64,000 nucleotides of DNA from Octopus vulgaris (lineage: Eukaryota), in contig OX597820.1 of NCBI GenBank assembly GCA_951406725.2, positions 72,850,001 through 72,914,000 of the forward strand, in the 5' to 3' direction. The notes beneath the pieces were generated by a model. That model was not told the origin of the DNA. It saw only the letters and a list, made by a program, of their open reading frames with translations, and did no database searches. Made by a program: the position numbers and the translations under genes. Positions within the stretch are counted from its first letter, which is position 1; every line of letters starts with the position of its first letter. Below are positions 16,052 to 63,244 of the stretch, piece by piece.

Positions 16052-16470
16052 GGTACACCAGAGTACGTGTCCCATTAACAACTTCGAATAACATACCCAC
16101 AGTCCTTCTGAACTAAACAAACACACTTATCCAGATACTGCTGCTCGTAATCTGACACACAAATACGCACGCACACGCACACACACACACAAAGCAAATA
16201 GGAATCACAGAACACGAGACCAGAAGGAATTACAGCACTCAACAACACCAAAATTTCGTTTGACGAGGTCCTCAACATGCTAAAATTTGCAGCTATATCT
16301 CCCTCAAATCATACGCTGCAGTCTTAAACATAAAAAGGACATATTGGTCAACATCGTTTGTTGCTTGAAAATAAGATGAGATGTGTTGCTATAATGCCGG
16401 GAGGGTCATTATGCCAATAATAAATGCAGACGCACTGGTTCTGTTTCACTTCTTTATTTTTTATTTGTCT

Positions 16471-16504
16471 GGCTTAGGAGTGGCTGTGTGGTAAGTAGCT
16501 TGCT
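16471..16504 (+). mobile_element. SINE family 1 5' stub (A box) up to the insertion site
   Basis: ggcttaggagtggctgtgtggtaagtagcttgct matches the heads at 53172 (+) and 63444 (-); the SINE resumes at 26921. Confidence 0.92.
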
Positions 16505-17986
16505 AACGCGCATGCGTCGAGTTGTTTACTGTGTCAAGTTTTGACTAGGCGGACAGAATCCTTTGAGCTGCTCGCCAGCGGTTTGTTGGCGAGTGGAAAA
16601 TAATGTATTCGGACCTTAGCGAGTACGAGCTGTCCACATCTGAGGAGGAGCTCGTTAAGGCGGTGAACAGGATGGACCAACATTTGGAGAAAATGAAGAG
16701 TTTTGCTGACGCGGCGGGAGTGAAGAGAAAGGAAGTGGACCTGACTGAACTGAAGGAGCTGTATAAGATGACACAGAAGGTGGGAAGTGACGTAAAGTTA
16801 CTACCCCCGAAAACGGTCATGGTGAATATGGAAAGGAAAACCATCACCTACAAGGTGCACTCAGTGGAGAGTAGGAGAGTGGAGCAGATGAATATGGAAA
16901 AAATAGAAAAAGCTCTCAAGGGGCTTTCGAACGAAGTAACATACATAGCAAACGGAAGCGGATATGGGACGGTGGTTGTCCAGTTTAAAACAGAGGAGGA
17001 GGCGAGGAGGCTGGCAAGTGCAACCGTAAAAGCTGAGGAACTGGTGCTTCTACCCTCTTATCTTGGAAGAAAAAATTCTAAGGTGAGGGTAGAAGGAATT
17101 CCACCTGACATAAAGGTGGCTTGGGTTGCGGCAGCCGTCCTCGTTGGAAGTGAGGAGGTGACTGTCCTCCAAGCCACAGAGACAGAGGAAAGAAGTTACA
17201 AAGGAAAACTACTGGAAATGACCATACAAGCGGAGGCGAAGGAGCTGGAAAATTTGGCGGAAACGTTGTCAGTGGGAGAAATAGTACTGAGAGTATGGGT
17301 AGAAGGCAGAACCCCGCGGTGCTTTAAATGTGGCCAAAAAGGCCACATTAGAGCACACTGCCCCCTACAGAAGAAAAAGAGGAAAAAATAGATGAACCAG
17401 TTGCGGAGACAAAGAAGAAAAAAGAGGACGAAGACAAAGACGGACGAAAGGAGGTAGAATGGATAGTAGCAGAGAGCTGAAGTAAGAAGAGGAAGAAAAG
17501 AAAGAACACTGAGTGTGAAATTGTACCCCAGTCCAACTCCATCCCACCCAAGACCACTCAGACCCACCCGCCCCATAAAGACACCAGACCCACCCACTCC
17601 CTTTCCCCACAAGAAAAAAAAGAAAAAGAAAAACGAGCAGACACCACAGAATTCAGAAAACCCCTCCCCCGGTGAAAAAGGTTGCGAAAGAAAGTTGTCT
17701 TTAAGCGATAGCGAGAATGGAAAAAGGAGGACTAGACCAGAGATTAGAGAAGAATTCAGACTCAAAGGCAGCGAGTGGTGTTGCTCAGAGTGGGGTGAGT
17801 AGCACACTCGTCATATTTCATACTTTATTTTCAGATATCATGCATGTTATCATAAACTTAATTTATTTTCTCACGTTCATTTTCATGTCACTCACAGTAT
17901 CATTTTATTTTTAATTGTTATATGTCTCCACATGTTTTTGTAGTGTCCCCTCTATGTAATGCCTTTATGGCAAAATAGTTGAAATA
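16505..17986 (+). mobile_element. ORF1-only Tx1-related non-autonomous retroelement, lineage A, copy 1 (~1.5 kb)
   Basis: Bounded by AAGTAGCTTGCT at 16493-16504 and 17987-17998; one ORF1, no EN/RT; 3' hairpin plus AATAAA. Confidence 0.88.
16603..17391 (+). CDS. L1/Tx1-type ORF1 protein (RRM-like region plus CCHC zinc knuckle); probably continues to ~17802 across frameshifts
   Basis: CFKCGQKGHIRAHC = CX2CX4HX4C; GYGTVVVQF, LLPSYLGR and VEGRTP align with ORF1 of the autonomous element at 21872. Confidence 0.85.
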   Translation: MYSDLSEYELSTSEEELVKAVNRMDQHLEKMKSFADAAGVKRKEVDLTELKELYKMTQKVGSDVKLLPPKTVMVNMERKTITYKVHSVESRRVEQMNMEKIEKALKGLSNEVTYIANGSGYGTVVVQFKTEEEARRLASATVKAEELVLLPSYLGRKNSKVRVEGIPPDIKVAWVAAAVLVGSEEVTVLQATETEERSYKGKLLEMTIQAEAKELENLAETLSVGEIVLRVWVEGRTPRCFKCGQKGHIRAHCPLQKKKRKK

Positions 17987-17998
17987 AAGTAGCTTGCT

Positions 17999-19955
17999 AA
18001 CTGCGCATGTGCGAGTCAGTGCTGTGTTTGCTACTGAAGCAGTGAAGATGTGCTTTTGAAGCCGTCTTGAATTGAAACTTTGGAAGCCCCATGTAAGGTA
18101 AGATTCTGTTTTCTGGGTCCAGTGGGAGTTTTTGTTGAGAATTATTTTTTACATGCAGGAAGTCCTACTGGATTCAGAATTCTGATTCTGCCGACATGTG
18201 GCAGATATATTTTTCTCGCTGAGAAAATTTTTGGGGGCGTATCCGTCTTCGAATTGTGAAAATTGTATTGTGCTGTGAAGAACTACCAATTTTACACCAA
18301 TTTATGTGGAAGTTGTGCGATCCTGGTTCGATTTAGGCCGGGAGTACCAAATGGCCAAAAGGATTTTGCTGTGTTTTTGACTTTCTTTTTAACTTTATTT
18401 GACTTTCTTTTCAACTTTATTTGACTCTCTCCGTTTTTTCATTGTGACATTCTTCGGATTTCCTTTTCTTCTCGTTTTTTAGTTTTATTCTAAATACATT
18501 TATTTAAAAAAAAACAAAAAAAACATGGCAACAAAAGAAACCACCGCTTTAGAATGGGAGGTCGTCCCACCCAAGCAGTGGATTGAAAGTCTTGAGAAGA
18601 GGACGGTGGTCCTACGAACCTATTCTAGGTCGCGTGGAGCCATTGCCCTCTTCGACAGGAATACTATAGAGAAAGAGTTGGGGGAATACCTGCCAACTAT
18701 AAAATTTATTTCTCGGGGGACTAAATTTGCAACGGTCTGGTTGCTGTTTGGTACCCCCGAGGAAGCTAGCAGATTTGCTAGCGAGCCACTGGAGGGAGAG
18801 GAAATTTTGTTCCTCCCCTCGTATTGTGGAAGAAAAGTGAAAAGAGCCTGGGTGTGTGGGCTGCCCCCGGGCACGGAGGCGGAATGGATCGAGAAGACCA
18901 TCCGGCGAGGCCTGGGGGATAGCGGACCCAGACTGCTGAGTGTGAAGGTGGCTCCCGCGGTCGCCTGGCAGGGGTCGAGGGCAACTTTGACCCTCTGGAC
19001 ACCGGTAGCCGTGGGGGAAATGAAATTCCCGGACTTCCTGAGAATGGCTGGGCACAGGTACCCGGTGATACTCGAGGGTCGCCCCCCCAAGTGTCACCTG
19101 TGCCTGAAGCCCGGACATATCAGGAAGAATTGTCCCAGGGGCCGTGGTGGTGCCCCGGAGCAGAGAGGGGAAAAGGCGCCCGCCGCCCCCTCATTGGAGG
19201 GGAGACGATGGAAGTCGTGGAGGAGGTTGCCTCCACGAAAAGAAGAGAAAGGCGAGCAACAATGGTTGCCCGCCAAAGAACGCTCAGGGGGCGAAGGGGG
19301 ATAGCAATCCCCCGTGTCTGGTGACGGAGTCCCCTGGGTCAGCAGTCTCCCCCAAAAGAAGGAGGAGAAAAAGGAGAGGTCGGACGGAGCCGCGGGTGGG
19401 ATGTGTGCCACCCGCGGACAAGGCTCCGCCGGTAGGAAGTGTGCCACCGACGGAGCAGTGTGAGGTCCCTCCCTGTGAAGAGGAGATGCTTCTCCTCCTT
19501 TACCACAAGGGAGAGGAGGTTGAAAGATTCTTGAATGGCTTGGGTGACCGAGAGCGTAAGGACACGGTCGGCTCAAGGAGTCCGTTATGGCCTCCGCAGG
19601 TAGCTGCGGAAAAAGTAACAGAAGATACTTTTTCAAGGGTCGCAGAGACCTTTGAAAAGAAAGACTTTACCTTTCTCCTTGCAGGCCCCGACTTGTCGTC
19701 GCAGAGTTGTCTGCAGGCGGCAAGACAATTTGCTTCGGGGACCTGACGAGAAGAATTGTTGAACATTTTTATGTAATTTGAATCATTGTTTATTAAATGT
19801 ATTTATTGAAACATTGTTTTAGAGAAGCGAAAGTCGGCGGGCGCTTTCGACTTCTCCCATCACCATCTTCATCCACCACCATCATCCATTAATGTCCTTG
19901 TCCAGCCCGTAGCTACTACTCTGTGTGCTGCCCTAGTGGCAAATTATATAAAATA
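17999..19955 (+). mobile_element. ORF1-only Tx1-related non-autonomous retroelement, lineage B (~2.0 kb)
   Basis: Between target motifs 17987-17998 and 19956-19968; one ORF1, no EN/RT; 3' tgcc-ctagt-ggca plus AATAAA. Confidence 0.86.
18525..19746 (+). CDS. Lineage B ORF1 protein (zinc knuckle), frameshifted in the low-complexity linker
   Basis: EKRTVV, FATVWLLF, FLPSYCGR, LEGRPPKCHLCLKPGHIRKNC in ORF 18525-19304; an overlapping frame runs to the stop at 19746. Confidence 0.78.
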
Positions 19956-19968
19956 AAGTAGCTTTGCT

Positions 19969-21465
19969 AACGCGCATGCGTCGAGTTGTTTACTGTGTCA
20001 AGTTTTGACTAGGCGGACAGAATCCTTTGAGCTGCTCGCCAGCGGTTTGTTGGCGAGTGGAAAATAATGTATTCGGACCTTAGCGAGTACGAGCTGTCCA
20101 CATCTGAGGAGGAGCTCGTTAAGGCGGTGAACAGGATGGACCAACATTTGGAGAAAATGAAGAGTTTTGCTGACGCGGCGGGAGTGAAGAGAAAGGAAGT
20201 GGACCTGACTGAACTGAAGGAGCTGTATAAGATGACACAGAAGGTGGGAAGTGACGTAAAGTTACTACCCCCGAAAACGGTCATGGTGAATATGGAAAGA
20301 AAAACTATCACCTACAAGGTGCACTCAGTGGAGAGTTGGAGAGTGGAGCAGATGAATATGGAAAAATAGAAAAAGCTCTCAAGGGGCTTTCGAACGAAGT
20401 AACATACATAGCAAACGGAAGCGGATATGGGACGGTGGTTGTCCAGTTTAAAACAGAGGAGGAGGCGAGAAGGCTGGCAAGTGCAACCGTAAAAGCTGAG
20501 GAACTGGTGCTTCTACCCTCTTATCTTGGAAGAAAAATTCTAAGGTGAGGGTAGAAGGAATTCCACCTGACATAAAGGTGGCTTGGGTTGCGGCAGCCGT
20601 CCTCGTTGGAAGTGAGGAGGTGACTGTCCTCCAAGCCACAGAGACAGAGGAAAGAAGTTACAAAGGAAAACTACTGGAAATGACCATACAAGCGGAGGCG
20701 AAGGAGCTGGAAAATTTGGCGGAAACGGTGTCAGTGGGAGAAATAGTACTGAGAGTATGGGTAGAAGGCAGAACCCCGCGGTGCTTTAAATGTGGCCAAA
20801 AAGGCCACATTAGAGCACACTGCCCCCTACAGAAGAAAAAGAGCACACTGCCCCCTACAGAAGAAAAAGAGGAAAAAATAGATGAACCAGTTGCGGAGAC
20901 AAAGAAGAAAAAAGAGGACGAAGACAAAGACGGACGAAAGGAGGAAGAATGGATAGTAGCAGAAGTAAGAAGAGGAAGAAAAGAAAGAACACTGAGTGTG
21001 AAATGGTACCCCAGTCCAACTCCATCCCACCCAAGACCACTCAGACCCACCCGCCCCATACAGACACCAGACCCACCCACTCCCTTTCCCCACAAGAAAA
21101 AAAGAAAAAGAAAAAAGAGCAGACACCACAGAATTCAGAAAACCCCTCCCCCGGTGAAAAAGGTTGCGAAAGAAAGTTGTCTTTAAGTGATAGCGAGAAT
21201 GGAAAAAGAAGGACTAGACCAGAGATTAGAGAAGAATTCAGACTCAAAGGCAGCGAGTGGTGTTGCTCAGAGTGGGGTGAGTAGCACACTCGTCATATTT
21301 CATACTTTATTTTCAGATATCATGCATGTTATAAACTTAATTTATTTTCTCACGTTCATTTTCATGTCACTCACAGTACCATTTTATTTTTAATTGTTAT
21401 ATGTCCCCACATGTTTTTGTAGTGTCCCCTCTATGTAATGCCTTTATGGCAAAATAGTTGAAATA
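19969..21465 (+). mobile_element. ORF1-only element, lineage A, copy 2
   Basis: Near-identical to 16505-17986 with the same 5' and 3' ends; flanked by aagtagctttgct and aagtagttttgct. Confidence 0.9.
20067..21284 (+). pseudogene. Lineage A ORF1 copy 2, split by single-base homopolymer deletions
   Basis: Track ORFs 20067-20369, 20336-20548, 20545-21186 and 20949-21284 join into the same protein; the first two breaks are A6-to-A5 changes relative to copy 1. Confidence 0.8.
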
Positions 21466-21871
21466 AAGTAGTTTTGCTAACCTCACTGACAGAAGAGTGA
21501 CTTTGCTTACCGTACTACGGTTTGGACGCGTTTTCTTCCCGGTAAGAGTTTTGCTGTGTTGTTAATTGTTGAATTCCTACTACTGAAAATTTGCCTTTAA
21601 ACGTTGCTGAACTGTCTTGTTCTCCGGTTTTACCGGGAAATAATTGAATAATTTCTTACCGTTGAACTGTTAGCCATTGTGGCTTTTTATTTACGTGACT
21701 ATATATAGTCCTGCCAGACTATTTTCGTGCCCCTCCCCCGAATGGGGGTGGGAATTGGAATTTTTGAACTGCTTTTTTGAACTACTTTGGAAGAAAAACT
21801 TTCTATAGGTTTCCCAGTTTTGTGGGAAACCAATATTCGTAATTTTTGTGTTGTCTAATTTCAACAGAATA

Positions 21872-23273
21872 ATGTCTGTTGAAATTATTCACGAAAGTAG
21901 TGCTCTTGAGGAGAGCAATGTTAAAAAATTTTCTGAGGTAGCCGCAGTGGCTACCGAGAACATCGATATCGATGTCAATCAGCTCGTCGAGCTATTTAAA
22001 AGAATGCAAGAGGAGGGTGGTGATGTTAAAATATCACCCTCCGCCAGTATCGTGGAGACCGAGAAGCGGACCGTAGTGTTTAAAACTTTCTGTCCACAAA
22101 GCAGAAGGTTCAAACACTTTGAAAAAAGCACCATCGAGAAATGCCTGTCCCCAATTTGGAAGGACATCGTGTACGTCGCCAGGGGACGGGCATATGGCAC
22201 TGTGGATGTCCGCTTCTCGGGGGAAGAAATGGCCCGCGGGCATTCTGTAAACCCCCTAAAAACCAAGGAGGTGGTACTTTTTCCAAGCTATAGGGGACGC
22301 AGGACGTCCCGGGTCAGGATTGTAGAAGCCCCGCCGGAAGTAGATCCGGTAGAGGTAGTGGCCGCCCTATTATATAAATGGGCGGACAAAATAAAAATAC
22401 TAGAAGTAACATGCTCTACCCCTCGATTTTGGCTCGGGCGTAACATTAATATATTAATTCAAGGAACAGCGGAGGACCTACAGCTCCTTCCTGAGAGGGT
22501 GCTCGTGGGCGAGAACGTAGCCCTCAGGGTACAGGTCGAAGGCCGAAAACCCACCTGTTACGCCTGCGGCAAAAAGGGCCACATTCGTGTAGACTGTCCA
22601 GACAAGCAAAAGAAACCGCAGACACCAGGCCCCTCAGATAATAAAAAAGTCCCTACCCTTGCAAACACACCTACCCCTACAAAAACAAAAAATCCCACTC
22701 CTGCTGTTACGGTGCCAACCCCAAAACAGACTGAAGAAAAAACCCAGCCCTCGCACTCACAAACCCCTACACTATTAAAACCTCCCACCCCCTAAAAACT
22801 GCGGCGCCTACCGAACAAACTATTGCTACCCCAGACGATACCATGGAGGTATCAGAGGGGGATTTACACCAGTTCGTAAAAGAATTCGTGCAGCATCCCC
22901 GTCCACATCCCCTACAAAAAATAATAAAAACAAAGACACACCACAGACACGGAAAAAAAAATCCCGCTCAACTGGCCCAGAAAAAGAAGACAAAAAAGAA
23001 AATGAACTCATATTAATTGAATTCGACACACAAGACAAATACATAAACGATATTGTGGTTCAGCATCAGTCAGCAAGACTGTACAACAAATACAAAGATC
23101 GAAATAGACACGCGTGGATTGCGGAAACAACGTTCAAACAATTAAAAGACAGACACCCAAACGCCATCCGGCATGTCGCGAACTTGCCGGACTATCTGAA
23201 GAAAGAGGAGAAAGAAGGGGCCCACAAACGTGTGGTGAGGTCGGCCCCCACCTCTCCAACGAAATGTAAGTAG
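21872..23273 (+). CDS. Tx1-like ORF1 (RRM-like, CCHC knuckle, Pro/Thr/Lys-rich tail), two apparent -1 homopolymer frameshifts
   Basis: CYACGKKGHIRVDC; adding one C (~22790) and one G (~22860) extends the frame to the stop at 23273, just before the ORF2 ATG. Confidence 0.8.
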
Positions 23274-23290
23274 AACTTTTACTTTTTGTA

Positions 23291-26200
23291 ATGGCTTCGA
23301 TTAACCTTGGTTGTTTAAATGTGCGTGGTCTGAGTTCGAAGTGGAAGCAGGCTTGTTTCCTCGACGACCTCAGATCACATGATATACATGTGATGGTTGC
23401 TACAGAGACCAAGCTGGACAGCCTACAAACCTTCTCGCCTCTCCTGAATGGCTACGAGAAAATCATGTCTCCTGGCCAGACCGGAGGGCGAGGGGGCGTA
23501 GTGGTACTGATCCGTAAAGACTTGGCTCTACAGACAAGTACAGTCTATGTAGACCCAGAAGGTGGGCTGGTCGTCCTTGATGTGACATACAGCAGTAAGT
23601 CCTTCAGGTTGATCGGACTCTATGCACCTTGTGCTAGAAGTTTCCAAACTGATTTTTATCGGCGCCTAGAGGGCTTTCTCGTGACGTCGAAGACTTTAGT
23701 GATATTAGGGGACTTTAATGCTATCGTTGACGTACACATCGATAGCGTTGGCTCGATCTATAGGAAAGTGAACTCACGTCTCGTGGATCTGCTTAAGCGG
23801 TTTCAGCTAGCAGATCGTTACAGACTTGACCATCCGAACGTCCCAGAGTGGACCTGGATGAGTGGCGACGGAAGGTTCAAGTCTTATCTAGACAGGATAG
23901 TGATAAGAACTAGAGATAAGTCTAGTTTTAGTTGTCCACAGCTCGTCCAGGTGCCCTATACTGACCATAGAATGGTCACGTGTAGACTGGACATAGATAG
24001 CACACTTAAGATAGGAACCGGCTACTGGAAGCTGAACAAGTCTATTTTGACACGCGAGCATACCGTAGCCGGATTAAGGTGTTAGTGCAGAGGGCGTTAA
24101 CCGGAGCCGTGGTTAATAACCGGTGGTGGTTCACCCTCAAAAGAGCCATTCGATTCGAGTCCATTAGATTTAGTAAACAACTAAGACTAGATAGGGCTAG
24201 AATAGAAGGGCAACTAGTTAAGAACTTAGAGGAGGCGTTGAGGTTGGGCTCTGCATCTCACATTTTAGCGGCGAGAACGGCATTAGACCGTCACCTCAAA
24301 ACCAAACATGAGGGATGTAGAGTCCGGGCTAAAGTACGAGCATTGGGCCGTGAGGGAATTAATGTTGCCGGATGGGCCCGTACGATAGGAACACAGCGTG
24401 GAAACGATGCCACAATTGGGACTCTTGTTGATGAAAACGGATGCACGATCAAGAAGCGGGACGAGATGTGTGAGGCACTTCACAAGCACTTCGCCGAGTT
24501 GTTCGGGAGGTGCGGGACGCTGGATCATGGTGAGCCCCTTAGGGACTTCCTGTCTGGTGGCCCGCGCCTCTCGACACGAGAGGCTGAGTGCTGTGAACGG
24601 CCAATCACATCCGAAGAAGTAATCGAGGTGTTGGGCAAGTGCCCCGGGGAGAAGTCGCCGGGTCTCGAGGGTCTGCCCTATGAATTTTATAGAAGTATGC
24701 CAGACTTGTTCGGACACCTGCTGGCTAGCGTCTACGCCAACTGGCAACAGAATGGGAGAATTCCCAAGTCTGCAAGCCGGGGGGCGGTGACGTTGATCAG
24801 GAAGGACCCGAACAAGGGGGACGAGATAGGGAACTTCAGGCCCATAACTCTGTTAAACACAGAGTTAAAGATTCTGGCCAAGGTGCTAGCAAAAAGGTTG
24901 GCGCGGGTCGTGGACAAACTTGTCGGGGAAGCGCAAACGTGTGCTATCCCCGGCAGAACGATCCACGACAATCTCCACCTTATACGCTACTCCTTAGAGA
25001 GGGTGGGGAAGCTTTCTGGCGCAGGGGGAGCACTGGTACATTTAGACCAGTCCAAAGCATTTGATAGGGTCGACCATCGGTACCTGGCGGCGGTCCTCGG
25101 AGAGGCTGGCCTAGGCCCGACCTTTCGAGGTTGGATCGCTGCTTTGTATAGCGACATCGAGTCTGTAGTCAAGGTGAACGGTTCCTTTTCGAAGCCGTTC
25201 AGGATCGAGCGTTCAGTTCGTCAAGGGTGTCCCCTGTCCTCGCTCCTATACGTATTGGCTCTTGAGCCTTTGCTGCGGAAGTTGGAGGCACTAGGGGGCG
25301 CGCCGCATGATCTATGGTGTGGAAGAGGAGCTACGGCGTATGCGGATGACACCTCCATCATCGTGGCAGACGAAGGCCAGCTTCCAGTGGTGGAAGAGGC
25401 CATCAAAAGCTACGAGGCGGTGGCAGGAGCAAAGGTTAACAAGGTCAAGTCGGTCGGTTTGCAACTCGGCACCTGGAGGGGCAAGCCGATGCCGTCCAAT
25501 AACGTCGTAGGGCGTTGGACGGAAGGTCCTGTTAAGCTGCTCGGAGTCTGGTTCGGGCCAGACCTCCAGATTGAGAAAAATTGGAGTGAGGTGGCCAACA
25601 AGGTGACCGCTCTAACCCAGATCTGGTCTGGGCGGGCGTTATCCCTGCTAGGGAAGGCGGAGGTGGTGCAGATGTTTATAGCATCAGTAATCACCTACCG
25701 CCTGACCGTGGTGCCTTGCCCCGATTTGTGGATGAACAAGTTGGAGAGAATCCTTTTCCGATTTTTGTGGAAAGGAGGAAAGCCACTTGTAAAGCGCTCT
25801 GTCTGCTGCCAGAAACCGCTAAAGGGTGGGCTAGGGATGCCTTGGCTGAGGATGCGAAAACTCGCGTTAAGGTTGAGGCACCTCTGGCTTTACCTGGATG
25901 GAGAGCAGGTGTGGTCGCCGCACGTCCGGTTCTACCTTCCCCAGTTAACATCCCTAACGGACATCGGTGCATGGATCAAACGGAGACCTAAACTGAGTGA
26001 ATGGCATTTGGAGTGCCGTCAGGCGCTCCAGCTACTATCTCGGGTGGGCAACGCCGGCAACAGGAGTTCCACCACGGATTTCTATAGCGGGTTAGTGGAG
26101 ATTAAGTCCGAAGACGCCTTGGGGGAGACCCTGGGCTACGATGAAAATCAGTTGGTCAACCTGTTCCGAAGGACGTTCGGGCCGGGGTATCTGGATAATT

Positions 26201-26692
26201 ACCAGAAATCCCTGGCCTGGCAGTGTTTCCGTGCGGCTTTACCTGTTCGCGACAAGCTGTCAAGGCACGGTAGTGCCGTCTCGCCGACATGCCCGCGATG
26301 TGAGCAGGATAGGGAGACCGTCTTGCACGCATTCGTGGAGTGTCCGGAGTTATCGGGACTGATAGCTTTTGTTGAACAACTGTTGTCAGTGATGGGAAGA
26401 GTACAGCTATCAGCTGAGTCTATCATCGAGATTGTGCCGCCCCCTTTCCTTAACAGGGAAAGAAAGGCTTGTTTTTTTCTGTGTAGTAGCCATACTGAAA
26501 GAAACAGTATGGAAGACGGGTACGAAAGGTATAGTGACAGGCACCTTTGTCTCCGGCCAGGGGTTGATTAACTTTTTTAGTTACCACCTCAGTAGCAAAA
26601 TCAGGCTGGAGAAGAGGTGTCTGTCACGAGATATGCTTGTGAAAAGATGGAAGCCTGTGGCATACAAGATGGGTATGTTTGGCACCAGGTAA
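23291..26692 (+). CDS. ORF2: apurinic-like endonuclease, reverse transcriptase and C-terminal zinc finger; two single-base frameshifts (~24058, ~26475)
   Basis: APE motifs LNVRGL, TETK, LYAP, GDFN, LDRI, TDH, WKLN; RT motifs KSPG, FRPITLLN, LDQSKAFDRVDH, VRQGCPLS, YADD; zinc finger CPRC..ETVLHAFVEC. Confidence 0.93.
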
Positions 26693-26920
26693 GTGTGACC
26701 GGATCAGAAAGTAAAGGTTCTACCCGGATGGCTGGGTGTCCGTCCTTCGACATGATCATTAATATTTTTAAACATTGCCTTCGTAAAATTCATTGTTTAT
26801 AATCTTATCCGTAATTTCATTCGAAAATTGTAACTGTGTTAAGCTACTTCACCCTTTATATTTGTCTGTCCTTGTTTGTCCCCTCTTTGTAAATGCCTAA
26901 ATGGCAAATTATATGAAATA

Positions 26921-27070
26921 AAGTAGCTTGCTTATGAACCACATGGTTCCGGGTTCAGTTCCACTGCATGGCACCTTGGGCAAGTGTCTCCTACTTATAG
27001 CCTCGAGACGACCAAAGCCTTGTGAGTGAATTTGGTAGACGGAAACTGAAAGAAGCCCGTCGTACATATG

Positions 27071-28924: not shown

Positions 28925-29541
28925 AAAGGGGGTTAAAGATACAGTGGACAAACAAGGACAGACAAAGGGATCAAATCGATTACATCGACCCCAGTGTGTA
29001 ACTGATACTTAATTTATCGAACCAGAAAGGATGAAAGACAAAGTCGACCCCGGCGGAATTTGAACTCAGAACATAAAGACAGACGAAATACGGCTACGCA
29101 TTTCGCCCGGCGTGCTAACGTTTCTTATTTCTTTATTGCCCACAAGGGCCTAAACATAGAGGGGACAAACAAGAAAAGACAAAGGGATCAAATCGATTAC
29201 ATCGACCCCAGTGTGTAACTAGTACTTAATTTATCGACACAGAAAGGATGAAAGGCAAAGTCGACCTCGGCGGAATTTGAACTCAGAACATAGCGGCAGA
29301 CGAAATACCTATTTCTTTACTACCTACAAGGGGCTAAACACAGTGGAAACAAACAAGGACAGACAAACGGATTAAGTCGATTACATCGACCCTAGTCCGT
29401 AACTGGCACTTATTTAATCGACCCCGAAAGGATGAAAGGCAAAGTCGACCTCGGCAGAATTTGAAATCAGAACGTAGCGACAGACGAAATACGGCTACGC
29501 ATTTCGTCCGGCGTGCTAACGTTACTGCCAGCTCGCTGCCT
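28925..29541 (-). mobile_element. SINE family 2 tandem trimer
   Basis: Three collinear units with junctions at 29123/29124 and 29308/29309. Confidence 0.85.
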
Positions 29542-34479: not shown

Positions 34480-35756
34480 GATAACGTCTCATATAGGATA
34501 TGGGCAATTCCTAGCAGGGCTATTTTTTAGACAGTGTGTAGTGTTGAGGGTCCAGGTATAGCTTCTACATTTTTATTCATATAATTTTTTATCATGCCCA
34601 ATGCTCCAGTTATTCTTTTCTCCTCTAGGCACAAGGCACGAAATTTTGGTGAAGGGGACCAGTCGATTAGATCGACTCCAGTACGCAACTGGTACTTAAT
34701 TTATCGACCCTGAAAAGATGAAAGCAAAATCGACCGCAGCGCAACAGCGCAATTTGAGCTAAGAACGTAAAGACAGACGAAATACCTATTTCTTTACTGC
34801 CCACAAGAGGCTACACACAGAGGGGACAAACAAGGACAGACAAACGGATTAAGTCGATTATATCGCCCCCAGTGCGTAACTGGTACTTATTTAATCGACC
34901 CCGAAAGGATGAAAGGCAAAGTCGACCTCGACGGAATTTGAACTCAGAACGTAGCGGCAGACGAAATACCTATTTCTTTACTTCCCACAAGGAGCTAAAT
35001 ATAGAGGGGACAAACAAGGACAGACATAGGTATTAAGTCGATTACATCGACCCCAGTGTGTAACTGGTACTTAATTTATCGACCCCGAAAGGATGAAAGG
35101 CAAAGTCGACCTCGGCGGAATTTGAACTCAGAACGTAACGACAGACGAAATACCGCTAAGCATTTCGCCCGGCGTGCTAACGTTACTGCTAGCTCGCCGC
35201 CTTAATGCTCCAGTTATTATTGGTATTGTTTTTACCTTCATGCCCTATATTTTGAATACTTCAATTTCGAGGTCTTTGTACTTCGACAATTTCTCCAATT
35301 CTGCATTGGCAATCTTTTGATCTGAAGAAACAGTAATGTCTACAGGTGATTTTTCCCCAATCACTGACTATCATGTGTGGACGATTAGCTTTTATGAACC
35401 TGCATATCCGAGATGATTGTGGCCTGATCGTTGTCTTGTATCTTGCTTGGCACATGCTTATACCACTTGCACTCAGTTTTGACGTTGTAATGTTGGCATA
35501 TTTTCCAGTGGATATAACTGTTTACTTTGTCGTGTCTGTATACATATTCAGGCTTGGCAAGGACTGGGCAGCCCGAGGTGATGTGGTCAACTGTCTCATT
35601 GTGCTGGTTGCACAATCTACATTTGGTGTTGAGGCCTGTTTTCATTATTTTATTTTTATAATTTTTTGTAGTCAGGCATTGGTCTTGTGCAGCGAGAATC
35701 AGTCCTTTCGTTTCGGCTTTTTGTCCAAAGCTTTTGAGCCATTGTTGGCTTTTACT
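34480..35756 (-). mobile_element. 5'-truncated R4/Dong-like non-LTR retrotransposon fragment (CCHC plus restriction-like endonuclease), interrupted by a SINE trimer
   Basis: AETKGLILAAQDQCL..CRLC..ETVDHITSGC..RHDKV..IHWKIC, then ANRP(H)MIV and KTIPIITGALGMIK across the SINE. Confidence 0.8.
34615..35203 (-). mobile_element. SINE family 2 tandem trimer with 15-bp TSD
   Basis: TSD aatgctccagttatt at 34600-34614 and 35204-35218; internal junctions at 34785/34786 and 34969/34970. Confidence 0.92.
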
Positions 35757-54597: not shown

Positions 54598-55889
54598 CGA
54601 GGGGCGTTCAATAAGTAATGCCCCTGACCCACTTCCCATAGCAGTAGAGCAACGAAACTTGGCACAGTTATTAGTCTTTTTCTACATAGGAACTACCCAG
54701 AGTTACGCATTTCTCACATCGTTTGATGCAGCTCTGAAGACCGTTTTTGTAGAAGACCCCAGCTTGGTCCTCCAACCACGACGTGACTTCAGAAATCAAG
54801 GCTGCATCATCTGGGAAACGCTTTCCTTTCAAAAACAACTTCATGGCTGGGAAGAGGTGAAAATCAGAGGGTGCAAGGTCAGGAGAGTATGGGGGATGGG
54901 GGATGAGTTCATAGTTGCACGCCTGTGCTTCTGATCTGGCGACACGCGAGTTGTGAACCGGAGCGTTGTCCTGCAAGAGGAGGATGCCTTTGCTGATCTT
55001 GCCCCGCCTCTTGATTTTGATAGCTTCTCTTAATTTCCTCAAAAGTGAAGCATAATAGGCTCCTGTAATTGTGGCACCCTTTGCCAGGAAATCTGTCATC
55101 AGTACTCCGTCCTGGTCCCAGAAGACTGTGAGCATGACCTTGCCAGCAGAAGGCTGCACCCTTGCCTTCTTTGGAGGAGGTGAGTCACGGTGTGTCCACT
55201 GCATTGACTGGGCTTTGGTCTCTGGATCATAGTGATGGACCCAGGTTTCATCCTGTGTAATCAGTCTTTTGAAAAATTTTGACTCATCTTCTTGGCACAT
55301 CTCCAAATTCATCCTCGAGTAATCGACACGTTCTTGCTTCTGGAAAGATGTGAGCAACCTGGGAATCCATCTGGCAGACACCTTTTGCATATGCAAATGG
55401 TCATGAATGATAGTTTCCACAGACCCGGTACTAATATTGACCTCATGGGCTATTTGGCGAATAGTTATGCGTCGATCTTCCAAAATGGCAGCCTCAACAT
55501 GACGGACAGATGCCTCATCAATGGCAGAAGGGGGCGACCAGATCTGGGAGCTGTTTCCACAGAGTTCCAACCATGTTTGAATTCACGATGCCAGCGTTTT
55601 ACAAAGTCATATGATGGGGCATCATCACCATAAGTTACTTTCATTTCATCAAAAGTCTCCCGTGGTATGCGTCCTTTCAAATACAAAAACTGGATCACTG
55701 CTCGACACTCAACAGGCTCCATTTCACACTTAACTCAGTTCAAACACTTGTAAATCAGAAACCACAATTAGTCCAGAGCTGTAATTTGTCACTTAATCTA
55801 TAAAGATATAAATAATTGTACATGCAAAATTTCAGCTAGATCAAATAACTGCAAGTGGGTCAGAAGCATTACTTATTGAACGCCCCTCG
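54598..55889 (-). mobile_element. Mariner transposon, 1292 bp, full length
   Basis: 37-bp TIRs cgaggggcgttcaataagtaatgc(cc/tt)ctgacccactt with TA on both sides. Confidence 0.95.
54671..55722 (-). CDS. Mariner DD34D transposase, one frameshift near 55530
   Basis: ATG 55722; PRSGRP; WIPRLL; ITQDETW; LLQDNAPVH; YSPDLAPSDFHLF. Confidence 0.92.
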
Positions 55890-61885: not shown

Positions 61886-62835
61886 CAGTTGCGGCCAAAA
61901 TGTTCAGAAAGGCATTGTTTTCGTCACAAAAGTAGGTATAAGTTTTTATCAAAGTTGTTTTATATTCTATAATTTTCACAGACAATAAATACGATATTAT
62001 TTGTTATTGTCTGAGATTTTGGTGTAATTAGAGAGGATAATAAAAAAGTTATGGATGATTTAGTGATTTACTGCAAAACCCATGGCGGCCAAAATGATCA
62101 GAACGGTTGCTTTTACTCCATGTTTTAGTATATTTAACCGTCGAACTCTAATGTTTTGAATTTGTTTACGTGACAGTTCGTTTACTAAACATTAGTAAGA
62201 ATATCTGCAGTGTACTTTGTTAATATAATGCCACTTACTCCGTTACCAATTCGTCAGCAGATTATTAAGCTCCGAAAGAAGGATAATTTAAGTATTAGGT
62301 CTATTGCAAAGATTGTTAACAAGTCAAAAAGTGTTGTTCATAGTATTCTTAAGGTCTACGATGATTGTGGTTCGTGTGAAGCAAGAAAGTCTACAGGTAG
62401 GCCAAGAAAAACGACCAAGAGAGAAGATCGTGCTATGGTAAAGTTGGTTAAAAAGGACAGATTTAAAACTGCTGCTGCTGTTTTTCAGGAAATGAGCATT
62501 GTACTGAAGAAAACTTTATCTCGAAAAACTGTGTCCCGTCCTTTAGTTGAACATGACCTGCAAGCAAAAGCACCTGCAGTGAAGCCACTGATCAGCTCCA
62601 AGAATAAAAAGTGTCGTCTTACCTTTGCAACCGAACATTTGTTGTGGTCTCAAGAAAAATGGCAAACGGTGCATTTCAGTGATGAATCTAAGTCCATTTT
62701 ATTTGGCTCAGATGGGAAAAGGTACGTTCGTCGAAAAGCAGGTGAAAAATTGTCACCTAAATGCCTTAAGACTAGTGTTAAATTCGGTGGAGGAAGTGTC
62801 ATGGTTTGGGGGATGATATCTGGAGATGTTGTGGG
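61886..62835 (+). mobile_element. 3'-truncated Tc1-family transposon with IR/DR-type left end
   Basis: TA|CAGTTGCGGCCAAAA terminus; inner direct repeat gcggccaaaatgatcagaacgg at 62085-62106. Confidence 0.85.
62228..62835 (+). pseudogene. Tc1 transposase N-terminal part
   Basis: LSIRSIAKIVNKSKSVV (HTH), GRPRKTT, WQTVHFSDESK, KFGGGSVMVWGMIS; then runs into SINE sequence. Confidence 0.88.
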
Positions 62836-62862
62836 CTCTGACTTAGCGGTTCGGCAAAAGAG

Positions 62863-62917
<55 letters not shown>

Positions 62918-62920
<3 letters not shown>

Positions 62921-63244
62921 TCTTACCCTTTACTTGTTTCAGTCATTTGACTGTGGCCATGCTGGAGCACCGCCTTTAGTCGAGCAAATCGATCCCAGGA
63001 CTTATTCTATCGGTCTCTTTTGCCGAACCGCTAAGTCACAGGCACGTAAACACATCAGCATCGGTTGTCAAGCGATGTTAGTGGGGGGACAAACACAGAC
63101 ATACAAACGTATACACACGCACATGCATACATACATACATACATACATACATACATACATACATACATACATACATACATACATACATACATACATACAT
63201 ACATACATGCATGCATACATACATGCATACATACATACATACAT

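Follow-up and report, generated by a model that had tools for sequence, protein, structure and literature searches.

The question raised by this locus is how units that carry the first open reading frame (ORF1) of a long interspersed element (LINE), and no ORF2, come to stand beside a complete element at one and the same site. The window, a 64,000-nucleotide (nt) stretch of Octopus vulgaris DNA (GenBank assembly GCA_951406725.2, contig OX597820.1, positions 72,850,001 to 72,914,000 of the forward strand), contains one copy of a common short interspersed element (SINE) at 16466 to 27064 that is interrupted by four head-to-tail units. These are two members of a family here called A (A1, 1.48 kb, and A2, 1.49 kb), one member of a second family, B (1.95 kb), and a two-ORF element of the L1 group, L (5.44 kb). 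It is highly probable that A and B are old, still-selected ORF1-only families of this SINE site, likely moved by the ORF2 of L. That this holds together with a change of partner in the ancestry of A is regarded as probable, with less certainty. The array is laid out as follows, in window coordinates.

16466 to 16492, + strand: head of the host SINE (its 5' part), including an A-box-like stretch and severed from the remainder by the array
16493 to 16507, + strand: target copy 1, duplicated target
16508 to 17986, + strand: A1, family A, ORF1-only; ORF1 starts at 16603, 3' hairpin at 17960 to 17972
17987 to 18002, + strand: target copy 2, at the A1/B junction
18003 to 19955, + strand: B, family B, ORF1-only; ORF1 starts at 18525, 3' hairpin at 19929 to 19941
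19956 to 19971, + strand: target copy 3, at the B/A2 junction, a variant with one additional T
19972 to 21465, + strand: A2, second family A element, a separate insertion
21466 to 21481, + strand: target copy 4, at the A2/L junction
21482 to 26920, + strand: L, two-ORF element of the L1 group; ORF1 from 21872, ORF2 from 23291, 3' hairpin at 26894 to 26906
26921 to 27064, + strand: target copy 5 and the remaining host SINE, with a B-box-like stretch and the body

A target copy of 12 to 16 nt is present at all five junctions (starting at 16493, 17987, 19956, 21466, and 26921), and empty SINE copies elsewhere join the head directly to the part that begins at 26921. The final bases of target copy 1 are likely contributed by the 5' end of A itself. 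All four units are frameshifted in the window: the ORF1 of A1 near 17378 and 17614, that of B near 19199 and 19243, that of A2 near 20367, 20537, and 20958 (with a tandem duplication of 28 nt at 20812 to 20871), and the L copy as well. The closest copies elsewhere differ by 0.6% substitutions for A1, 0.8% for B, and 0.7% for A2 (the last on another contig). All four units thus lie 0.6 to 0.9% from a copy at another locus, which points to roughly simultaneous activity; the same holds for young copies of A, B, and L, none of which is more than about 1% from copies elsewhere in the genome. Over their full length, A1 and A2 are 96% identical and 2.9% apart, and each is closer to copies on other contigs than to the other, which rules out a local tandem duplication of A. 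The host SINE has stretches that look like an A-box, a B-box, and a CORE domain, which makes it a candidate CORE-SINE. No tRNA was called in the SINE head by ARAGORN at three loci or by Rfam at two loci. OR1 is listed as an octopus CORE-SINE in the available text of PMC4824008.

Members of A and B are scattered across the genome, with constant ends and target duplications. Counting only loci that had not been chosen by junction pattern, the target motif directly follows the 3' end in 51/52 A copies and 51/51 B copies that keep the 3' untranslated region (UTR), compared with 129/5000 (2.6%) random 65-mers. The junction of 3' tip and target has 1385 exact matches in the 2.8-Gb genome, compared with 4 for the reversed control. 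On contig C1, 60 loci were drawn from the 100 listed matches, skipping some already examined, and provided 63 junctions: 29 belong to ORF1-only units (27 B-type and 2 A-type), 20 to B-like 3' ends without a nearby ORF1 (some of these matches being short), and 6 to the L lineage, with 8 unclassified. A, B, and L often share one array, and the order of units follows no clean rule, as A-B, B-A, and L-B-L are all found. Older A and B copies stand mostly in SINEs whose target position 4 is A, and younger ones in SINEs with T there, so that the elements seem to have followed the turnover of the SINE.

The initial annotation had described A (two copies with the same ends) and B as units with their own ORF1, a CCHC knuckle, and no endonuclease (EN) or reverse transcriptase (RT) remnant. 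This description and the bounds of the units hold, with a correction for ORF1: the window ORF1s are frameshifted (262 and 259 amino acids [aa]), and intact ORF1s elsewhere in the genome are longer, at 400 to 408 aa for A and 415 to 416 aa for B, so that the real 3' UTRs measure about 180 to 210 nt. Searches against Pfam retrieved zf-CCHC in the ORF1s of A, B, and L, and EN, RT, and zf-RVT in L only; across the ORF1 cores compared, zf-CCHC was detected in 35/46. The likeness among these proteins extends beyond the shared motifs noticed at first, since the 210-aa cores align over their full length with identities of 40% (A-L), 26% (B-L), and 26% (A-B), and the ORF1s of A and B are homologous across these 210 aa to those of two autonomous families. 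At the nucleotide level, similarity is found at the 3' tip (A-L, 85% over 46 nt; B-L, 86% over 29 nt; A-B, 74% over 39 nt), and outside the last 30 to 46 nt it is limited to two weak patches in ORF1 (E values of 0.002 to 0.007), much as had been reported from the window.

The predicted model of the A core (pLDDT, the predicted local distance difference test score, of 89.8) shows two RRM-like (RNA recognition motif) domains ahead of the CCHC knuckle. The top Foldseek matches of this model are tandem-RRM proteins, and VIA-align gave a Z score of 8.5 to the La RRM. ORF1 is thus predicted to consist of two RRM-like folds and a knuckle; fold likeness alone shows no function. The ORF1 homologues retrieved are all named from Octopus sinensis. 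B-type ORF1s that are 90 to 94% alike are paired with at least three unrelated 5' UTRs and with differing 3' regions (loci L052 to L060 and L153 to L159), which suggests modular exchange among riders. Separately, contigs of four runs, which are RNA only by guess (none of the listed runs is recorded as RNA), include parts of A, B, and L, among them a 1239-nt contig with the 5' end and ORF1 core of B; these were used neither for nor against any reading.

L is the likely donor of ORF2 for A and B. It encodes ORF1, EN, RT, and zf-RVT (Pfam), and copies with an intact ORF2 of 1133 aa are present at other loci. With an N-terminal apurinic/apyrimidinic endonuclease (APE), an RT, and a C-terminal zinc-binding domain, L has the features of the L1 group. 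The best match of its ORF2 to a solved structure is human L1 ORF2p (E value of 9e-67, versus 2e-20 for R2), and its closest named homologue is a hypothetical protein of Argonauta; no named Tx1 reference was among the matches. Full-length copies of the L lineage terminate at the SINE site, that is, they combine a target preference with an APE endonuclease. According to the available text of PMC4640811, the APE clades with a target-sequence preference are Tx1 and R1. A second young autonomous family, L2, has an ORF2 60% identical to that of L, a different 3' tip, and other insertion sites, and it stands in arrays with ORF1-only families of its own. The L2 loci (L142 to L146 and L262 to L274; for example, G000:C2:71850728-71858000) hold many intact ORF2s of 1131 aa and ORF1-only families of ∼1.6 kb; the units form long arrays, head to tail, at a different target. 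A third autonomous family has a short tip, not of the SINE type, and lies outside the SINE.

The relationships among these ORF1s were inspected in an unrooted tree of 57 rows chosen from 319 units, with 208 columns. It contains well-supported groups for B (100/100), A (99/96), the lineage of L (97/96), and L2 (100/100), and it places A within ORF1-only families that carry another type of tip, behind three successive nodes (97/93, 100/97, and 94/95). In approximately unbiased (AU) tests, a clade of A with the lineage of L was rejected (p = 9e-6), which agrees, as far as A is concerned, with the earlier statement that these are not recent deletion products of the neighboring element, and a clade of the other-tip families without A was also rejected (p = 0.0075). 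A clade of A with B, on a long branch, was not rejected (p = 0.36), and the two may have lost ORF2 together or separately. Past the knuckle, the DNA of the A-clade copy L010 matches the other-tip families (75% over 215 nt, and 77 to 93% over 41 to 83 nt in the 3' UTR), whereas its match to elements of the L lineage is limited to the last 36 to 43 nt. The SINE-type tip is confined to the L lineage, A, and B; the tail-pattern search missed most B rows. A is best read as a body of the other type with an L-type tip. From the computed tree and homology, A likely reached its L partner and the SINE target by switching this tip of ∼40 nt, and template switching at a common motif just upstream of the hairpin may have placed it there.

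It is unlikely that A and B became riders without such a switch, with an ancestor of A that already had the SINE-type tip and site and relatives that repeatedly moved away, or with a tip of A that drifted towards that of L. The tree has no root, the tip label needs three changes either way, and all tips share the upstream motif and the hairpin, the types differing by a few substitutions and a short extension. Nevertheless, this history requires that the SINE-type tip was lost independently three times or more, although the short tip is the more widespread one, being found in L2, the third autonomous family, and a short non-coding repeat, and the 3' UTR of A keeps the other type as far as the tip.

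Whether A and B descend directly from complete elements was addressed by looking for ORF2 downstream of their ORF1s. No endonuclease was found in any of the 76 A-clade or 95 B-clade units with enough downstream DNA, while ORF2 is present in 69/69 autonomous-clade units with enough DNA (8 of which were relabelled by hand from their EN matches). Identical overlaps were removed before counting; 15 further B units were too short to judge, as were 8 autonomous units, 3 of which have no EN in about 1.4 kb. An RT fragment occurs in only two ORF1-only units, at +1416 in L091 and behind another ORF1 piece in L168. The protein searches comprised the best 150 of 14,564 candidates for A and the best 150 of 12,072 for B, down to identities of 44% and 64%, respectively. 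Inspected as loci or through a DNA match into the 3' region were A matches of at least 60% identity except three, and B matches of at least 74% except a few array members. Among the matches examined, ORF2 thus accompanies neither an A-like nor a B-like ORF1, as had been anticipated from the window.

The ORF1s themselves are maintained. Variants common to at least three copies have dN/dS (nonsynonymous to synonymous rate) ratios of 0.22 in A (21 copies) and 0.18 in B (26 copies), whereas private, one-copy variants are near neutral, with 0.86 in A (including 15 stops) and 0.78 in B. This indicates that ORF1 was needed by those copies that continued to transpose. Pairwise dN/dS is 0.14 to 0.39 in the bins below 97% identity, out to 55 to 60% identity, in pairs that share one reference and are not independent; purifying selection is also seen among B copies at least 85% alike. 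A role of ORF1 in cis is the simplest reading of this selection. Neutral evolution of ORF1 in the transposing lineages is therefore not what is observed, and the purified ORF1 together with the lack of an ORF2-bearing parent among the matches examined sustains the proposal of the initial annotation that these are old, independently maintained lineages.

These data also bear on a second account, in which A and B are repeated and fairly recent ORF2 deletions from lost or unsampled parents, so that the selection dates from those parents. We consider it quite improbable. Repeated loss of ORF2 is known for HAL1 (PMC5753468) and for Drosophila telomeric elements (PMC13534243), in the available text of both; ORF1 changes fast in the autonomous lines, where it is 55 to 67% identical at 84% identity of EN; and the parent search covered the best 150 candidates of each family. 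However, each examined member of two ladder-like clades is without ORF2. In addition, knuckle and tip lie 518 to 619 nt apart for 80% of the 61 A copies measured, as expected from one old deletion, and the selection holds among B copies at least 85% alike, where no parent was found.

The 3' tip is predicted to fold into a hairpin (stem of 4 bp, loop of 5 nt) ahead of an A-rich end. The form TGCC-N5-GGCA is present in 46/63 SINE junctions and GCCC-N5-GGGY in 68/100 tips of the other type; one pair is altered on both sides between the two groups, and this compensating change speaks weakly to moderately for a real structure. At single insertions, the two target copies are not mirror images of each other. 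A target variant shorter by 1 nt occurs at 11 5' junctions of single insertions (one B subfamily) and at 0/87 3' junctions, and at target position 13, 9/10 mismatches run in the same direction (24 loci scored; sign test by hand, p about 0.02). Position 4, a marker of the SINE subfamily, agrees between copies in 74/78 cases, and short truncated copies have target duplications of 6 to 15 nt. The asymmetry at the 5' end implies that full-length elements carry, at their very start, a family-specific copy of the target's far half. One A-clade subfamily (L095, L098, L099, L104, L107, and L115) starts with two successive target-like stretches, as if an older mimic had been retained and a newer one added in front.

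These features suggest the following route, in which L's ORF2 would mobilize A and B in trans. The ORF1 protein of each unit would coat its own RNA in cis, a role suggested by the computed selection, and L's ORF2 would recognize the 3' tip, with binding proposed from the tip that is seen to be common. The L endonuclease would cut the SINE head and prime reverse transcription, leaving the target duplication of 10 to 15 bp; site and duplication are observed directly. The far-half target copy at the 5' end may then anneal at the junction and rebuild the site, and a target site rebuilt at the 5' junction would explain the stacking of units. In A, tree and homology place the origin of ORF1 and 3' UTR in ORF1-only families with a different tip and targets, and the switch would have followed. 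Evidence leans, by a modest degree, towards a lineage A that exchanged its former ORF2 donor and targets for L and the SINE site by taking up an L-type tip of ∼40 nt, with its own ORF1 and UTRs retained; on this view the tip would act as a portable address label that selects the enzyme and, through it, the genomic target, and such half-LINEs may outlive and change their autonomous hosts. That the ORF1-only families are helpers, whose ORF1 proteins raise or steer L transposition in mixed particles as proposed for HeT-A, is very improbable: such proteins likely multimerize with those of an autonomous partner (PMC5786205, available text) and arrays that combine A, B, and L are common, but selection on the ORF is most easily explained by a benefit in cis, one ORF2 serves ORF1s that are 26 to 40% alike, and riders are more numerous than L-type ends (29 to 6 among the 63 sampled junctions), as would be expected of parasites.

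Several points weigh against the mobilization of A and B by L and the switch of A as set out above. The tree is based on 208 columns, with long branches and no root, and the nesting hypothesis followed the first tree, which weakens the p value of 0.0075. For 4/16 other-tip rows (L118, L126, L140, and L149), the own tip was not located. The tip of A is 85% identical over 46 nt to the young L tip, short of identity, so that gradual convergence instead of a swap is possible. The change in the hairpin is a single event between two groups, the search pattern prescribed its 3' strand, and the short non-coding repeat is among the 100 tips of the other type. Shared variants of family L itself have a dN/dS of 0.61, on 12 changes only. 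The use of L's ORF2 in trans is deduced from a common tip, site, and age. Finally, with sampling of the best 150 candidates, and with three A matches of at least 60% identity and a few members of long B arrays left out, a rare or lost parent is possible.

In their sequence features, A and B fit the non-autonomous LINEs that retain ORF1: they have an ORF1-type protein and no ORF2, and are dispersed with fixed ends and target duplications. Movement in trans by an autonomous ORF2 would complete the likeness. The published sources compared here are cited for what their available text holds. ORF1-only LINEs are a named class that includes HeT-A, HAL1, and Ag-Sponge (PMC5786205; PMC5753468), and ORF1-only families make up about 40% of the telomeric ones in Drosophila, where such lineages yield new ones (PMC13534243). 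The mammalian HAL1 is alike in being a non-autonomous L1-group derivative with ORF1p only and several origins (PMC5753468), while the octopus riders differ in their single sequence-specific site, stacked arrays, recent activity (about 1% divergence), RRM-RRM-CCHC ORF1, and the absence of a close parent in the genome sample. The term HAL1-like used at first is therefore apt as an analogy, for ORF1-only units of the L1 group, and fails as a strict class of mammalian L1 derivatives, since ORF1 has homologues from Octopus sinensis and carries a CCHC knuckle. The mammalian L1 ORF1p is not known to carry such a knuckle.

HeT-A and the telomeric Jockey elements of Drosophila belong to the Jockey clade and occupy chromosome ends, whereas the octopus elements are of the L1 group and occupy an internal site in a dispersed SINE; a change of partner and target through the 3' tip was not found for the Drosophila telomeric elements in the available text of PMC13534243 and PMC5786205. 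Ag-Sponge, of the CR1 clade, is likewise a bipartite LINE with ORF1 and without ORF2, but it belongs to a different clade, and no site specificity is stated in that text (PMC5786205). Tx1 elements that target other repeats, with non-coding riders sharing the target, are known, and Tx1 in Tx1D, Tx1-Mar in Mariner-N4_AMi with SINEU riders, and Keno in U2 genes are repeat-targeting APE-type LINEs (PMC4494074). They resemble the octopus system in that non-autonomous passengers have the same target as the LINE. The targets listed there are DNA transposons, long terminal repeat elements, microsatellites, satellites, and small-RNA genes, with non-coding passengers (PMC4494074), whereas the octopus target is a SINE head and the passengers encode ORF1. 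An octopus LINE paper reports RTE and Dong elements and has no mention of Tx1 in its available text (PMC9115989). Our literature search retrieved no SINE-targeting L1-group element with ORF1-only riders and no partner-changing rider; Repbase, supplements, and subscription papers were outside its scope and may describe such families. What seems new is the combination of ORF1-only riders, a SINE target, and a probable partner switch, ORF1-only LINEs and repeat-targeting Tx1 elements being already known.

Other repeats were noted along the way. A tandem short repeat of 184 nt occupies 29126 to 29492 and 34661 to 35154 of the window on the minus strand, ends with the other type of tip, and has 30 nt in common with the 3' UTR of L; it probably rides, as a non-coding unit, on the same LINE group, and it is also found upstream in locus L128. 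At loci L166, L167, and L181, a unit of ∼230 to 250 nt with the SINE-type tip and a common 5' start is a possible non-coding rider. Locus L211 (G000:C1:111116891-111116968) holds two junctions of tip and target on opposite strands, back to back and 25 nt apart. Runs under four other coded organism labels contain pieces of A and B, none spanning a unit, and were not used for dating. Two open frames of the window, at 54671 to 55582 (− strand, 303 aa) and 62189 to 62950 (+ strand, 253 aa), presumably resemble mariner/Tc1 transposases.

If the mobilization of A and B by L is correct, the SINE head is a common niche of ORF1-only riders that outnumber their donor several-fold. As to why ORF1 is kept without ORF2, the selection in passenger-only lines points to a role in cis, and ORF1s that are 26 to 40% alike would work with one ORF2. 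If a tip of ∼40 nt redirects passenger RNA between ORF2s, it would be a compact handle for site-specific insertion, and tip-swap assays are feasible, since young copies that are still intact are available for all four families (A, B, L, and L2).

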